Assembly: GCA_016839745.1 (NCBI GenBank)
Contig: JAEOTS010000045.1
Coordinates: 15,750-79,749, forward strand
Direction of reading: 5' to 3'
Source of the DNA: Promethearchaeota archaeon
Lineage (GTDB): Archaea; Asgardarchaeota; Lokiarchaeia; Sigyniarchaeales; SOKP01
Length of the DNA: 64,000 nucleotides
Below are positions 59,159-63,926 of this stretch, one piece after another; the first letter of the stretch is position 1, and every line of letters begins with the position of its first letter. Below the pieces are notes generated by a model that saw only the letters and a list, made by a program, of their open reading frames with translations, ran no database searches and was not told the DNA's origin. The position numbers and the translations under genes are program-made.

Positions 59159-60001
59159 ATGAATAAAAAACATCTGAGGAAGGAGATAACAGATTTTCAA
59201 CCAACTCAGAGAGCACCGGAATATAACAATTTGGAATTTACGGTATTACTGGTAAGGCCAGAACACGCGGGAAACATTGGATCTATAGCCCGACTCATGA
59301 AAAACTTCAACTTTGTTAATTTAGTTGTATTTAATCCTGTTGAGAGTGCAGAAATCATACGGAGCCATCATACCCAAGGATTTGCTATGCATGGTAAAGA
59401 TATCCTTTTAAACGCAGAAATTATAGAACTTAAAAGCCAAAATACCCACTTAGATAAATACAAAGAATTACTTCAAAAATTTGATTTAGTAATTGCATCA
59501 ACAGCTAAAGGAATGCATTATAAGAACATAAGAAGGTTAGCTACCTTTCCTGCAGAATTAATTCTACCTATTTCAGAAAATCCAATAACTATTGCTTTAG
59601 TATTCGGGAAGGAATCACGGGGACTTACTAACGAAGAAATAGAATTTGCTGATTTATTACTTAGAATACCCTCTGAAAATGCTTATCCTACTTTGAATCT
59701 TTCTCACGCTTGTGGAATTATTCTGTATGAAATCTATAATAAAATACATAATGTCGCAATAGGAAGAGGAATCAAACCAGTATTATTAGCAAATAAAAAC
59801 GATAAACAACTCCTTTATAATAGCATAAAAAGTTTAAGTAAAAGTCTCAAAATTCGCCCATACATTGCTGAAAATGTTTTCTTTTCTTTTAAAAATGTGT
59901 TTGAACGAGCCTTTATTTCAAAAAAAGAGCTAAACTTAATTTTAAGCGTGTTCTCAAAATTGAACTCTCTCTTAAAGAAAGGAAAAATATATGAGGAATA
60001 A
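59159..60001 (+). CDS. trmJ: SPOUT RNA methyltransferase, TrmJ/LasT family
   Basis: LVRPEHAGNIGSIARLMKNF, VFGKESRGLTNEE, YPTLNLSHA. Confidence 0.88.
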   Translation: MNKKHLRKEITDFQPTQRAPEYNNLEFTVLLVRPEHAGNIGSIARLMKNFNFVNLVVFNPVESAEIIRSHHTQGFAMHGKDILLNAEIIELKSQNTHLDKYKELLQKFDLVIASTAKGMHYKNIRRLATFPAELILPISENPITIALVFGKESRGLTNEEIEFADLLLRIPSENAYPTLNLSHACGIILYEIYNKIHNVAIGRGIKPVLLANKNDKQLLYNSIKSLSKSLKIRPYIAENVFFSFKNVFERAFISKKELNLILSVFSKLNSLLKKGKIYEE

Positions 60002-60012
60002 ATTAATATTTT

Positions 60013-60210
60013 CTAAACTGCTTGATAATAACGTGGTTTCTGGTTAGCATAGATTACTATCTTTTCAGGTGTATCATTCACAATTCTTCTAATGACTTTG
60101 GCAAGGGCGTTGTGTGTGTCGTATCCCATAGCGCTTGCCCATTCACTGGCGGTACATCTTCCTAATTCTTTTAATTTATCTAAACAAATCTGCTCATAAG
60201 TCCTTGGAAT
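60013..60210 (-). CDS. Small winged-helix protein (65 aa), probable ATT start, not in track
   Basis: Hand translation: (I/M)PRTYEQICLDKLKELGRCTASEWASAMGYDTHNALAKVIRRIVNDTPEKIVIYANQKPRYYQAV*; in-frame stop upstream with no ATG. Confidence 0.6.
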   Translation of the reverse strand: MPRTYEQICLDKLKELGRCTASEWASAMGYDTHNALAKVIRRIVNDTPEKIVIYANQKPRYYQAV

Positions 60211-60570
60211 TACCTTCTTTACCTTTAAAATTGATGATTACCTCCAATTTAACTTGTTCTATTATTTTATTCTAATTTATTTAGAAAAACACTTATTCTA
60301 TGAAAGATTTATATGATATTGTTATCAACCCTACTCCAGATAATAAGATTAGTGGCAACATTACATCTTTGCTATAATTATGGCGTTGTCTCCTAGTATT
60401 CCAATGTATTATCTATCTTGAATAAAAATTAGATCTGAGGTTATTTAAAGCATGATGTTAGACATTTGTAGAGGATTACATAGTTTCTGTATAAGGATTT
60501 AAATTAACCCACTTTTCAAACCCAAATAATTTTTGATAGAATTATCGCCAAAAACAAGCTTTTCTTGACA

Positions 60571-60840
60571 AAATCGTAAATTATTTTAGTAAAATGCAAT
60601 TTAGGAAAAAAATTGTTAAAATTTGGATAGTCTATTAAGGGATCTTGAATTGATGTAAAATTTTTGGGATTAAGTATGTTCTACTAGTACGATTTCACTT
60701 TACAATTTTTACCCATTTAAATATATCTTAAGAATTGGGAATGTTTTCCCACTGTAAAATCGAGATTTTTACGATTTATTAATTAATGCGTTAATATTTC
60801 ATGAAAAAAAAAATGAATATGTTTTTTTTTAAATTAAAAC
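60571..60840. promoter_or_regulatory. Cluster of iterated/inverted AAAT(C/T)GT(T)AAA motifs and palindromes next to an A/T tract
   Basis: AAATCGTAAA 60571, AAATTGTTAAA 60610, reverse copies TTTACAATTT 60699 and TTTACGATTT 60768; palindromes TGGGAA-N4-TTCCCA 60736-60751 and GTAAAATC-GA-GATTTTTAC 60754-60772. Confidence 0.35.
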
Positions 60841-60996
60841 ATCATACTAGTTGAAACTAAAACCATATTAATACAATTAGTATTTACTAAAAAGCCAAGT
60901 TTGGTATGTTCAATATCGGATAAAATTATGGAATTACGGTAAACCGTTTAAGTGAAGATGCTTAAATAAAACTCAAGAGTTTGTTATTGTGAATAA

Positions 60997-61236
60997 ACCT
61001 GATTTGAGAAAATTAGAGTAAGATAGGGATAAGAAATATTTAATCAAGACTCCTGCGCCACCCTGGATTTTTGTCTTTTGGAAGCGCGAAATCTTCGCGT
61101 ATTTTGCCATTCTTACCCTATTTTAATTCAGACCTTATTATTAGGTCTTGGCGACAGGAGTCAACCTTTCTAATTCAGAGTGGTTTTTTATTACTAAACT
61201 TAAACCGAACAAAATCTTTCTCATTGATAATCAGGT
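60997..61236. ncRNA. Candidate structured non-coding RNA (nested stems plus pseudoknot), family unknown
   Basis: Eight complementary segment pairs, centred on GC-rich GACTCCTGCGCCA (61048-61060) / TGGCGACAGGAGTC (61149-61162), in an AT-rich intergenic region; strand unresolved. Confidence 0.55.
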
Positions 61237-61412
61237 GTTTTCTTATCAATCTGCTCATCTAATACTCCAATTTATATATTTCAGCTAATATAAACCCTAT
61301 TACAAAAAACATGTATTCCATCAACAACCTACAGTAATGTAATCCACTATATTAGAGCTTAGCTTTAAAATAAAAAGATATATATAGCCAAATATGGTAT
61401 TTTTATTTAACC

Positions 61413-61877
61413 ATGTCTCAATCGTATAAAGATTTTTTAGAAAAATACAAAATCGACGATTTTAAAACGAATTTAAAGCTTTCTGGACACACAAAAATTG
61501 ATTTCTACAACGATATTGATAAACTATTAAAAAGTATGAGTACAATTTTCGACAAACTCGCAACAATTGGAACTATGAGAGGTGCTCAAGTATTAATGGC
61601 AGTTGCAAAGCTAACAGGACCAGATGAAGTAGTAAATAAAACGGATGTGAAAAATTGTTTGAATATCGACAGATTAGAGAAATTAAGATCTGCTTTTGAG
61701 TATTTAGAAAAAGCTAAATACATTACGATTGAGGAAAAAACCGAGAAATTTCATATTGTAAAGTTAAACGAAGAGGATAATCCAGACTTAAGAGTATTAA
61801 GGGAGATCGTTCAGAAATATTGGAAATCCCCTCGAGAAGAAGTAGAACAAGCTCAGAAATGGAGTGAAGAAAGATGA
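61413..61877 (+). CDS. Winged-helix-like hypothetical protein
   Basis: AQVLMAVAK...VNKTDVKNCLNI...LRSAFEYLEKAKYITI...FHIVKL wHTH pattern. Confidence 0.7.
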   Translation: MSQSYKDFLEKYKIDDFKTNLKLSGHTKIDFYNDIDKLLKSMSTIFDKLATIGTMRGAQVLMAVAKLTGPDEVVNKTDVKNCLNIDRLEKLRSAFEYLEKAKYITIEEKTEKFHIVKLNEEDNPDLRVLREIVQKYWKSPREEVEQAQKWSEER

Positions 61878-62869
61878 GAAATTCTTTAAAAGTTGAGCTG
61901 AATTTCGAAGATGAACAAGGTCTTAGAGATTCAGTTAAGACAATTAGATCAGAATATATTAAAAAAGCGCTTAAATCAATTGTATATATTACTATCGTTT
62001 TGTCTGTAGCACTTAGTTATTTGCTCTACGGTTATTTGCCCTACATCGAGAAGAATTTTTTTACCAACTTATTACCTTCTGAGAGCTTTAATCAAGAGGG
62101 AAATAGTCACCCCTTAAATCTAACTCTAAGTTGGACGTTTTTTAGTACGTGTATTTTCTTAATAGTATATTTTATTCGATTAAGTCAAGTAAAATTTACG
62201 CCTTCTTTAATTAGATATATCGAAAAAGAGACAAAATACGCGGGATTTGAATTTATAAAGAAAATTGAGAGCGTTGGATTATTTATGGTTCTCACAGCTG
62301 TCTCTATAGCAATTCTATTTTATATTGACACTAGACTTATCCAATTTAACGAGACTTTCTTGAGTGTTTTCTTTCAAAATTCTTTTTTCGTCTATTTACT
62401 AATAAGTTTATTACTCCCGATCGTTTTCATCTTTAGAAACGATAAATTTACTATCAAAGTAAAGGACAATGTTTTCGTTCTTTGTAATCTGCATTATGCT
62501 GTTCGGAAAAAGAAGGATTACGATTCTAATTTATTAGGAATAATTCTAACATCAAATCGTTTATGTACTAAGTTTGATAAATCTGGAAAATATATCTATT
62601 CCAAAATTTCAGAAAATAGATGGTTAATTAGAAACGAGCCTTCCGTAATATCACCATTTCTTCATTTTGAGGAGTATTCAGTACCCATTAACTTCCAAAA
62701 GCAATTTTTAAACATTGTTTTGGCTCTTAACGATTGGGAAAGTAATTACATTTCAAACATTAATTCAATGAATCATTATTTCTCAAACACATTTCCATAT
62801 TACAAATATGGGAATAATAAGGATGATAATAGAAGGGGACTTATCTATTTGAGATTTTTAAATCACTAA
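61874..62869 (+). CDS. Hypothetical membrane protein (4 TM plus soluble C-terminus)
   Basis: ATGA overlap with the upstream gene; four hydrophobic segments. Confidence 0.75.
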   Translation: MRNSLKVELNFEDEQGLRDSVKTIRSEYIKKALKSIVYITIVLSVALSYLLYGYLPYIEKNFFTNLLPSESFNQEGNSHPLNLTLSWTFFSTCIFLIVYFIRLSQVKFTPSLIRYIEKETKYAGFEFIKKIESVGLFMVLTAVSIAILFYIDTRLIQFNETFLSVFFQNSFFVYLLISLLLPIVFIFRNDKFTIKVKDNVFVLCNLHYAVRKKKDYDSNLLGIILTSNRLCTKFDKSGKYIYSKISENRWLIRNEPSVISPFLHFEEYSVPINFQKQFLNIVLALNDWESNYISNINSMNHYFSNTFPYYKYGNNKDDNRRGLIYLRFLNH

Positions 62870-63050
62870 CACTATTTTTTTCCAAGGTAATCATCCTATT
62901 AAAATATCGTTAGCCTAAAAGAGGGAGGAAATTAAATAATCAAATATGGATACTTTTATAAGGTAAAATTTGATCTTTACTCATTGTGATTCATTTTTGA
63001 ATCCAATTAAGTATAGATTCTATTGTTATCCACATTAGAGAGTCTTTTCA

Positions 63051-63926
63051 ATGAAGAAAAGTAAGATTCTTAACATATTGTTAATTTTCCTTTTATTGGT
63101 TATTAACTTAGACGCTAAATCACTTGAAAGTTCTGCAAATCCACTTCCAGGTCCAGAAATACTTGATATGGGGGGGATTGTTCATGATAGTAATAACTCT
63201 TTAAACTTAGTCAACGCAGATGTAGTTCTTACTATAGATTCTACAGATTTCCAAAATAATATCTCAATGCTATTTAACGGTAATTACACCATCCATAATC
63301 CCACAAACACTACAGAAAATGTAACTATATATGCTCCTTTTTCATTTCAGGGAGATAACATAGAATCGGGGTGGCAAGTAGCAGTAAACGGCACTCCTAC
63401 CGATTTTAGCTCTGTATGGGCTGATTCACTTAATTCTAATCTATCATCTTATTTCGAGAATTATACCGCATATATAGCGTTTTACATAGTAATTAACATT
63501 ACTATTTTAAAAGAAACTTCTCAGGTTATTTCGTATAGATTATATAAAACTATGGAAAATCCATTATATTACACGGATTATTACTCAATTCGCTATATAG
63601 TAGCTACTGCTAGAGCGTGGAAGAACTATATCACAGAGAAAGTCGAATTTAAAGTTCAAGGAAAACTCCCAACTTCTTATACCGAATATACTGAAAAATC
63701 ATGTAGTATTTCGACTATTCCTAATGGGAAATCTTATAGCTGGAATTGGGATAATGAAAGTATTAATGACGATATTGTTGGGATAAATTATCGTGGACAA
63801 TTACTTAAACCCGAAGAAATACTTTTCTATATAATATTACTGGGAAGTATTGGTATAGGAGGAGTGACTTTAATCGTATTTCTGATTGTAAGAAAAAAGA
63901 AAAAAAAGAAAAGTCGTAACTTATGA
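63051..63926 (+). CDS. Exported protein with C-terminal membrane anchor
   Basis: Signal peptide, beta-rich body with many N-x-S/T sequons, TM helix followed by RKKKKKK. Confidence 0.8.
   Translation: MKKSKILNILLIFLLLVINLDAKSLESSANPLPGPEILDMGGIVHDSNNSLNLVNADVVLTIDSTDFQNNISMLFNGNYTIHNPTNTTENVTIYAPFSFQGDNIESGWQVAVNGTPTDFSSVWADSLNSNLSSYFENYTAYIAFYIVINITILKETSQVISYRLYKTMENPLYYTDYYSIRYIVATARAWKNYITEKVEFKVQGKLPTSYTEYTEKSCSISTIPNGKSYSWNWDNESINDDIVGINYRGQLLKPEEILFYIILLGSIGIGGVTLIVFLIVRKKKKKKSRNL

Follow-up and report, generated by a model that had tools for sequence, protein, structure and literature searches.

A multi-copy family of structured RNAs with an invariant U-rich box in Lokiarchaeia

Positions 61019-61165 (+) of the window, by which we mean the whole 64,000-nucleotide stretch of DNA analysed here, very probably hold the gene for a stand-alone folded small RNA that is transcribed independently. 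The RNA is a member of a multi-copy RNA family of Lokiarchaeia that is absent from Rfam, and it is one of two copies in its genome. We infer both ends of the transcript, which gives a length of about 120-175 nt. Comparison of related copies shows a multi-branch predicted fold in which the closing helix P1 encloses a helix with a U-rich loop, the hairpin P2, a pyrimidine-rich strand and the hairpin P3 (Table 1). A purine-rich 5' arm pairs with the pyrimidine strand across P1 in the window copy and most others of the genus, a pseudoknot with moderate comparative support. The original prediction had described a structured, so far unannotated Asgard RNA extending over 240 nt (60997-61236). Its central claim is borne out by a conserved, covarying fold and the lack of any Rfam match, and the extent of the element in this window is corrected here to about 145-175 nt instead of 240 nt. 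As to its role, the reading of the gene as one for a small RNA that acts in trans, as the RNA of a ribonucleoprotein (RNP), seems to us evenly poised between right and wrong.

Table 1. Features of the RNA gene and its flanks in the window
Feature	Position	Strand	Basis or remark
Conserved upstream block	60925-61004	+	identity 0.67-0.92 (six orthologous loci) vs about 0.5-0.6 further on
Promoter-like GAAGAT	60954-60959	+	in conserved upstream block
TATA-like TTAAATAA	60962-60969	+	in conserved upstream block
Pseudoknot 5' arm: TAAGATAGGG 61019-61028, bulged A 61029, TAAGAA 61030-61035	61019-61035	+	pairs with 61110-61125
P1 5' strand (closing helix)	61048-61060	+	13 of 13 pairs with changes on both sides, 73 copies
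Two-pair helix C61061-G61081, C61062-G61080 closing 17-nt loop with U-box CUGGAUUUUUGUCUUUU	61061-61081	+	covariation
Sm-site-like heptad AUUUUUG	61067-61073	+	inside U-box loop
P2 hairpin GCGCGAA-AUC-UUCGCGU	61084-61100	+	double changes at 7 of 7 pairs
Pyrimidine-rich linker	61101-61129	+	predicted unpaired within core
Pseudoknot 3' arm in linker	61110-61125	+	pairs with 61019-61035 across P1
P3 hairpin (A)GACCU-N7-AGGUC(U)	61130-61148	+	invariant in genus, covaries beyond
P1 3' strand, bulged A 61154	61149-61162	+	covariation and sequence check
3' tail with T tracts: TTT 61167-61169, T6 61184-61189	61163-61189	+	probable termination zone

All nine pairs of complementary arms listed in the original prediction were located by script where they had been placed. 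Complementarity is perfect in six of them, namely the outer stems (three pairs), P3 and the side and competing hairpins; a single bulge interrupts the core stem and another the pseudoknot arm, and one G.U pair occurs in the hairpin at 61084-61100. The 240-nt stretch folds to -65.9 kcal/mol and its dinucleotide shuffles to -45.3 +/- 4.2; z is -4.86 for the + strand and -4.28 for the - strand. For the core at 61040-61170 the corresponding z-scores are -5.29 and -3.61, so that both the entire region and its core fold better than shuffled sequence, as a structured RNA had been expected to do, and both fold more strongly on the + strand. The core also forms a GC island, with a GC content of 0.44 compared with 0.26 in the flanks.

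Searches for known RNAs were negative. No hit at the gathering threshold was obtained with Rfam 15 in the whole 64-kb window, and only chance hits appeared when the E limit was relaxed to 10 for 60200-61500 or to 1 for 19 diverse copies of the family; these scans gave no match to the snRNA models (U1, U2, U4, U5, U7). ARAGORN found no tRNA or tmRNA in the window, and a full-text literature search of incomplete coverage returned no description of the family. The lack of a Rfam 15 match and of a published description that we could find thus indicates, without amounting to proof, that the family is uncatalogued.

The fold is carried by covariation. Alignment A2 holds 73 copies from 12 genera, drawn from about 400 hits in total to the covariance model R1. 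Since these copies were aligned to a covariance model, A2 is somewhat biased towards that model, and within it standard pairs occupy 91.6% of cells, as against 65.7% when the partners are shuffled. Compensatory, two-sided changes were found in all 27 core pairs, in line with the homologues and compensatory changes anticipated for relatives' genomes. The covariation score was 0.62, compared with 0.19 for shuffled partners and 0.06-0.12 for partners slid by 1-3 columns. A raw MAFFT alignment also shows wholesale compensated replacement of P1 and P2: in copy L025, P1 is entirely different in sequence yet complementary, and in paralogues the sequence of P2 is swapped with full compensation (for example AGUGUG/CACACU in the second copy of the genome). 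P3 does not vary within the genus, and in distant copies it covaries over 5 pairs, 98% of them paired. The two pairs that close the U-box loop covary as well, with CG in 54 and AU in 9 of the 73 copies at one pair, and CG in 60 and UG in 7 at the other. Across the 73 copies, G.U cells outnumber A.C cells by 136 to 49, and the RNA is therefore read from the + strand. The window copy scores 126.6 bits against R1 (E 6e-33) and has the parts of the family in order: a covarying P1, the box 3' of its first strand, then P2, the linker and P3.

Directly 3' of the 5' strand of P1 lies a 19-nt box, CUGGAUUUUUGUCUUUUGG (CTGGATTTTTGTCTTTTGG as searched for in genomes), with an exact match at 61063-61081 of the window. 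The box is invariant in alignment A1 and nearly invariant in A2, while P1 and P2 around it are replaced. The base that follows it is A in the window and usually U in the family. Its heptad lies in a 17-nt loop closed by the covarying 2-bp helix, and thermodynamic folding places GGAU and GUCU of the box in a weak local hairpin. The canonical Sm heptad is AUUUUUG. Compared with the Sm site RAU(4-6)GR, the sequence GAUUUUUGU at 61066-61074 fits in its heptad, and the G is followed by U, not by a purine; AUUUUUG then continues into UCUUUUGG. Further along the core, folding predicts a mean unpaired probability of 0.7-0.8 for the pyrimidine-rich linker across the family. In most relatives the linker reads CGCCCUCCUCCCCCUAUUUU, and the window copy has fewer C residues than this family consensus.

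The linker contains one strand of a pseudoknot. A pairing of 61023-61035 with 61110-61121 across the core stem had been proposed, and it is present and longer than drawn, with moderate comparative support. In its full register 61019-61028 pairs with 61116-61125 (one G.U) and 61030-61035 with 61110-61115. The interleaved order of arm, P1 5' strand, linker and P1 3' strand, as in an H-type pseudoknot, is evident from the sequence. The duplex between arm and linker in the window copy has an energy of -19.5 kcal/mol (z -3.8). In the majority of copies from the genus, AAAAUAGGG stands upstream of P1 at a distance of 12-53 nt, and the linker contains CCCUAUUUU. Double changes between arm and linker were seen at two positions (nine rows), with T-A replaced by C-G in seven distinct rows and A-T by T-A in two; a G.U pair stands at the latter position in two further rows, one of them the window copy. 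The helix is paired in 86.8% of cells compared with 83.7% after shuffling, and the observed figure is attained in 36 of 2000 shuffles, a modest global statistic that is explained by the fact that most positions never vary. When each copy's own 5' leader was paired with its linker, z fell below -2 in 23 of 69 copies, as against 8 of 69 for the downstream flank used as control. Some distant copies have different but matching arm and linker sequences, one sub-group has an internal insertion instead, and in many distant copies the pairing is absent or unclear. These comparisons moderately support a pseudoknot that is probably real in the genus of the window and is not a universal feature of the family.

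The RNA is spread widely within one Lokiarchaeial family. A BLAST search of the window's own genome with 60950-61300 returned a second copy on another contig, and the match covered 61048-61161 only, i.e., the core closed by P1. In this second copy P2 is different but self-complementary, and the G.U pairs of inner P1 work only on the + strand. A DNA search of 40 relatives found the core in 23 of the 24 genomes of the genus, with 1-9 copies each. Covariance model R1, built from 28 copies, gave hits in 123 of 131 genomes of the family to which the window belongs (f1), in 12 of its 13 genera and with 1-17 copies per genome; outside f1 it matched 1 of the 14 genomes searched from the sister family (f2) and 0 of 5 from two other families (f3/f4). 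With model R2, built from 73 diverse copies, weakly matching, diverged copies were detected in 3 of 10 sister-family genomes and none in f3/f4. The box alone, at up to 1 mismatch, occurs in 126 of 134 f1 genomes, in 1 of 14 f2 genomes and in 0 of 252 genomes from 31 other families of the phylum; a reversed control pattern gave 1 hit. Among the 2.9 million viral contigs of IMG/VR there were 4 box hits, a single one of which is a true copy, on a 224-kb contig filed as viral. Copy number differs between close relatives.

Upstream of the RNA, promoter-like words lie in a conserved block (Table 1), and a similar GAAGAT...TTTAAATA stands at a comparable distance in paralogues at another locus. Counted from P1, the region -90..-51 is enriched in TATA-like words across the 73 copies, and the region -40..-1 is depleted of them. 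From these words and the position of the TATA element we infer a transcription start at about 60990-60994, 25-60 nt before P1, which would place the 5' arm inside the transcript. In most copies CC-TTT(T) directly follows P1. The motif AAGATAAAAATTTAA was considered as a family-wide promoter element and rejected: at up to 1 mismatch it occurs only at one orthologous locus, at 3 mismatches controls match about as often, and there is no exact match in the own genome. The upstream regions of tRNAs, tried as a promoter reference, were uninformative with only 11 tRNAs (ARAGORN).

The window copy is flanked by a SpoU-type methylase gene (59159-60001) on one side and by three genes (61413-63926) with no match in Pfam on the other. 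Relatives of the neighbouring gene come from Promethearchaeota/Promethearchaeia MAGs, and the host is therefore a Loki-type Asgard archaeon; an Asgard host had been assumed in the original prediction. Elsewhere in the family, 34 copies from several genera share the main syntenic locus, in which the RNA stands between the gene for a small membrane protein and a radical-SAM Tes-like gene. A further 7 copies belong to the window-type locus, many other loci are singletons, and in two loci synteny is retained between species and even between genera. At the ancestral locus, the divergently oriented gene encodes a small 4-helix membrane protein with no Pfam hit. In the sister family, a search for a homologue of this syntenic arrangement yielded a single weak hit to the membrane protein, and that hit is not accompanied by the RNA. 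The conserved neighbours were also considered as partners of the RNA and set aside; neither the membrane protein nor the radical-SAM (Tes-like) gene is RNA-related.

Two other explanations concern how far the RNA extends and whether it belongs to its downstream gene. It is highly improbable that the whole nested structure at 60997-61236 is the functional RNA, with the hairpin at 61223-61250 acting as a switch against the outer stems. Its outer arms are perfect complements of 8, 7 and 6 bp, the minimum-free-energy fold includes outer stems 1 and 2, and the inferred start near 60992 would include the outer 5' halves in the transcript. Conservation, however, is limited to the inner ~145 nt. In a seven-way alignment of the spacer, identity is high at 60925-61004 and 61045-61164 and drops right after 61165, to a minimum of 0.40-0.44 at 61225-61264, the site of the outer 3' arms and of the competing hairpin; over the whole of this least conserved stretch, which takes in the outer 3' halves and the side and competing hairpins, it is 0.40-0.62 as against 0.9 in the core. 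The T6 tract (Table 1) precedes the outer 3' halves. The outer stems (60997-61017 / 61169-61236) are thus complementary as drawn but not conserved even in the closest orthologues: the leader-trailer duplex reaches a z of only -1.5 in the window and -0.5 to +1.2 in five orthologous loci with core identities of 82-94%, and in L005 the G opposite C61222 has become A with its C partner unchanged. Likewise, the side hairpin at 61182-61206 is a perfect complement but lies in the least conserved part of the spacer, and the same placement tells against the proposed switch, although the competing hairpin is complementary in the window. Since orthologues conserve neither the outer stems nor the switch hairpin, the 240-nt extent is unsupported, and we conclude that these elements are in all likelihood peculiarities of one sequence, not of the RNA family. 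We give similarly little credence to a cis-acting leader or riboswitch for the 154-aa gene (61413-61877) and its operon, as the original prediction had also suggested. The RNA is indeed on the same strand as this gene, 245-263 nt upstream of it, in the window and 16 orthologous loci. Yet the gene has its own promoter, conserved at 61285-61404 and nearly invariant in the block 61365-61404 (identity 0.82-1.00), and it occurs without the RNA: among 28 loci with relatives of the gene only the 10 closest carry the RNA, about 265 nt upstream, it is absent from 17 relatives with a full upstream flank, and among eight RNA-less loci that were compared with the window the closest become homologous to it from 61277 onwards and the more distant ones from later positions. 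Other copies of the RNA precede unrelated genes or face convergent ones, the downstream gene being convergent in 31 of 83 cases (94 distinct copies). The convergent neighbours, the gene's own promoter, the RNA-less relatives and the variety of loci together make the RNA a stand-alone gene and not a leader. They are evidence for the window copy being a recent paralogue, probably inserted upstream of an independently promoted gene, and the comparison of loci shows a downstream operon that is apparently not under the control of the RNA.

Three further explanations concern what the repeated unit is. Repeated DNA of a MITE-like non-autonomous element, with P1 as terminal inverted repeats and no RNA function, would account for copies that are dispersed, multiple (1-17 per genome) and variable in number between close relatives, and for the true copy on the 224-kb contig filed as viral. 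We nevertheless consider it very unlikely, and the idea that the structure is the end of such an element did not hold up. The termini differ between copies yet stay complementary, with G.U pairs usable on one strand only; conservation is highest in the internal 19-nt box and not at the ends, and the internal hairpins covary; two loci are syntenic across species and genera with no transposase nearby, and only 1 of the 4 viral box hits is a true copy. A self-cleaving ribozyme or a metabolite-binding RNA, with the box as active or binding core, is in our judgement quite unlikely too. An invariant core within variable helices and a pseudoknot are typical of such RNAs, but none of the ribozyme or riboswitch models of Rfam 15 matched at E up to 1-10, the copies are stand-alone rather than within repeats, introns or 5' UTRs, and U-rich loops would presumably make poor catalytic cores. 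The faintest prospect is that of a Y-RNA-like molecule bound by Ro60 for quality control, or of a guide-type RNA whose box pairs with rRNA. Y RNAs have a bulged closing stem, a pyrimidine-rich interior, a U-rich 3' tail and a length of about 115 nt, all of which recall the RNA described here. However, TROVE/Ro60 (PF05731) was detected in 0 of 61 genomes of the order, in searches that did detect the positive controls, and the RNA is therefore not a Y RNA. As for a guide, when up to 3 mismatches are allowed the box has no complement in its own genome outside the two loci of the RNA, except for one 3-mismatch site on contig C43, and 12 hits appear at up to 4 mismatches. No rRNA genes were found in the own MAG; with rRNAs from relatives (a 23S rRNA and partial 16S rRNAs) the duplexes of the box were ordinary (z -0.5, -1.3 and +0.6). 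Since neither a long genomic complement nor an unusual rRNA complement exists in these sequences, a guide role for the box appears unlikely.

We return to the reading of the RNA as a trans-acting part of a small RNP. According to this proposal, the RNA would act in trans as the RNA part of the particle, and a protein would dock on the invariant U-box. That the U-box is a protein-binding platform is plausible from its conservation pattern, and we would put no more weight on this than on its opposite. The candidate for binding it is an Sm-like protein, given the AUUUUUG within the box and the affinity of archaeal Sm-like proteins for U-rich RNA; we put this identification forward tentatively, as it is more doubtful than the platform itself. 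In Sulfolobus acidocaldarius, the RNA partners of SmAP1 and SmAP2 recovered by RIP-seq carry U-rich motifs (PMC12817955). Three to six LSM-domain hits were obtained in every genome searched, and the candidates are the four Sm-like proteins that these genomes encode. A lineage-specific Sm paralogue was considered, as a fourth LSM hit is frequent in f1 compared with three in f2, and was discarded because the same protein is found in f2 (35-45% identity). With all four Sm-like proteins also present in the sister family, no Sm-like protein tracks the RNA. Further points go against the proposal: the 19-nt U-box is far longer than an Sm heptad, its G is followed by U in place of a purine, folding puts part of it in the weak hairpin mentioned above, and no neighbouring gene suggests a partner.

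On the RNA side of the proposal, the variable C/U-rich strand, which is of CCUCC type and resembles an anti-Shine-Dalgarno sequence, would pair with purine-rich RNA, and the 5' arm would mask or pre-organise it. The commonest sequence of the strand is CCCUCCUCCCCC, which is complementary to ribosome-binding sites of the GGAGG type. That the linker serves as a seed for purine-rich, Shine-Dalgarno-like targets is nevertheless unlikely in our estimate. The full combination, in which the U-box RNAs are archaeal Sm-class RNPs with an Sm-like protein on the AUUUUUG loop and a pseudoknotted C/U strand guiding them to purine-rich targets, is a speculative model that we expect to fail in at least some of its parts.

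Asgard archaea are, to our knowledge, the closest known archaeal kin of eukaryotes, and we know of hardly any description of non-coding RNA in them. The RNA family is near-universal in one large Lokiarchaeial family, with several copies per genome and under strong structural selection, and a 19-nt box that stays unchanged amid a rewritten molecule indicates an important and specific partner. An Sm-like partner would give the family a bearing on how snRNPs arose, and if the reading as an Sm-class RNP were true, the particle would represent a prokaryotic equivalent of the eukaryotic snRNP core that might even be related to it. With a partner that is not Sm-like, the RNAs would still be among the first lineage-specific structured Asgard RNAs with a testable architecture.

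Several known systems share parts of this architecture. The Sm-class snRNAs comprise U1, U2, U4 and U5, and U7 with its AAUUUGUCUAG-type site. Like these, the Lokiarchaeial RNA has a U-rich AUUUUUG motif between helices that is conserved while the helices vary, and it is encoded by a small stand-alone gene with a putative promoter of its own in an Asgard host with several Sm-like proteins; UUUGUCU within its U-box recalls U7. Unlike the snRNAs, it matches no snRNA model, its 19-nt box is in a closed loop and the G is followed by U. The comparison does not extend to Sm binding, a cap or a role in splicing. Y RNAs and bacterial Y-RNA-like RNAs are similar in size, in the bulged closing stem formed by the 5' and 3' ends, in the pyrimidine-rich interior and in the U-rich tail; they differ in that the Ro60 (TROVE) partner occurs in 0 of 61 genomes here and that there is no Rfam match.

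The small RNAs of the HgcC/E/F/G type, which Klein, Misulovin and Eddy reportedly described in 2002 as GC-rich RNAs of AT-rich archaea, are in Rfam. The RNA described here is likewise an orphan structured RNA in a GC-rich island (0.44) of an AT-rich spacer (0.26), but it has no homology to them and no Rfam hit, and lineage and fold differ. RsaE and RNAIII of S. aureus are regulatory RNAs with C-rich motifs that pair with Shine-Dalgarno sequences. The exposed C/U-rich stretch of most copies (CCCUCCUCCCCC) is similarly complementary to GGAGG-type sites; in contrast to the hairpin loops of RsaE and RNAIII it lies in a multiloop or pseudoknot, it is less C-rich in the window copy, and its targets are hypothetical. 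Finally, the RNAs bound by archaeal SmAP/Lsm proteins (Sulfolobus, Haloferax) and the Hfq-dependent RNAs of bacteria are also stand-alone, with a U-rich putative docking element, a variable single strand as a possible seed and several sibling copies per genome. Those RNAs form no single structural family, whereas the Lokiarchaeial RNA has one fold and one box across a taxonomic family.

The spacer of ~800 nt at window 60005-60800, which follows the SpoU-type methylase gene, was 55-84% identical across seven species, a level of conservation close to that of coding DNA. Only a small minus-strand frame at its SpoU-proximal end offers an explanation for this conservation. This frame was retained in 9 of 10 orthologous loci with ~80% amino-acid identity (E ~1e-40), and its translation, which includes …TASEWASAMGYDTHNALAKVIRRI…, has the look of a helix-turn-helix. 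No ORF of at least 40 aa starting with ATG, GTG or TTG was listed at its position; the frame could represent a small gene that begins with a non-canonical codon. Further downstream, no counterpart of the very AT-rich stretch was present in six orthologous spacers (identity 0.03-0.21). On the 3' side of the RNA gene, none of the three co-oriented genes had a Pfam match; the 154-aa gene was conserved in 28 Promethearchaeota MAGs at 51-86% identity, and its promoter block (window 61365-61404) was near-invariant.

Features identified in the window and in related loci
Feature	Location	Strand	Remarks
Stop-free frame, 74 codons	window 60016-60237	(-)	amino-acid conservation across orthologous loci
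Block	window 60425-60464		within spacer 60005-60800
Conserved palindrome GGGAATGTTTTCCC	window 60737-60750		within spacer 60005-60800
Very AT-rich stretch, ~100 nt	window 60805-60905		just 5' of the conserved promoter block for the RNA gene
Three genes, 154, 331 and 291 aa	window 61413-63926	(+)	co-oriented
142-aa protein	L133:1258-1686, genome G018	(-)	weak N-terminal LSM-domain match, 30.6 bits
Diverged true RNA-family member	L151:41-142	(-)	29.3 bits, exact U-box

Neither archaeal SSU nor LSU rRNA was found in the whole of the window's own assembly (89% complete), and searches for rRNA-related features in it are therefore blind. The 142-aa protein of genome G018 is conserved order-wide, with 35-45% identity in the sister family, and is a fourth Sm-like protein besides the three canonical ones.

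The carrier of the diverged RNA copy at locus L151 is an IMG/VR contig filed as viral (IMGVR_UViG_3300029288_000001, 224,826 nt), which may belong to a giant virus of Lokiarchaeia or be a host contig filed in error. In the orthologue of the window copy from genome G014 (L007:1505-1606, minus strand), hairpin P2 is wholly gone through a deletion of ~19 nt, and P1, the U-box, the linker, P3 and the 5' arm are retained. Because P2 was deleted and the other parts were kept, it seems that P2 is dispensable, or else that this copy is in decay. At the Tes-like locus of three genomes (L022, L023 and L024), the linker carries a 30-nt insertion with its own hairpin, CCGUG/CACGG, and with a GGGGA immediately 5' of UCCCCC. 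These copies have no upstream AAAAUAGGG arm, and their sequences read as if an internal partner stood in place of the pseudoknot arm.
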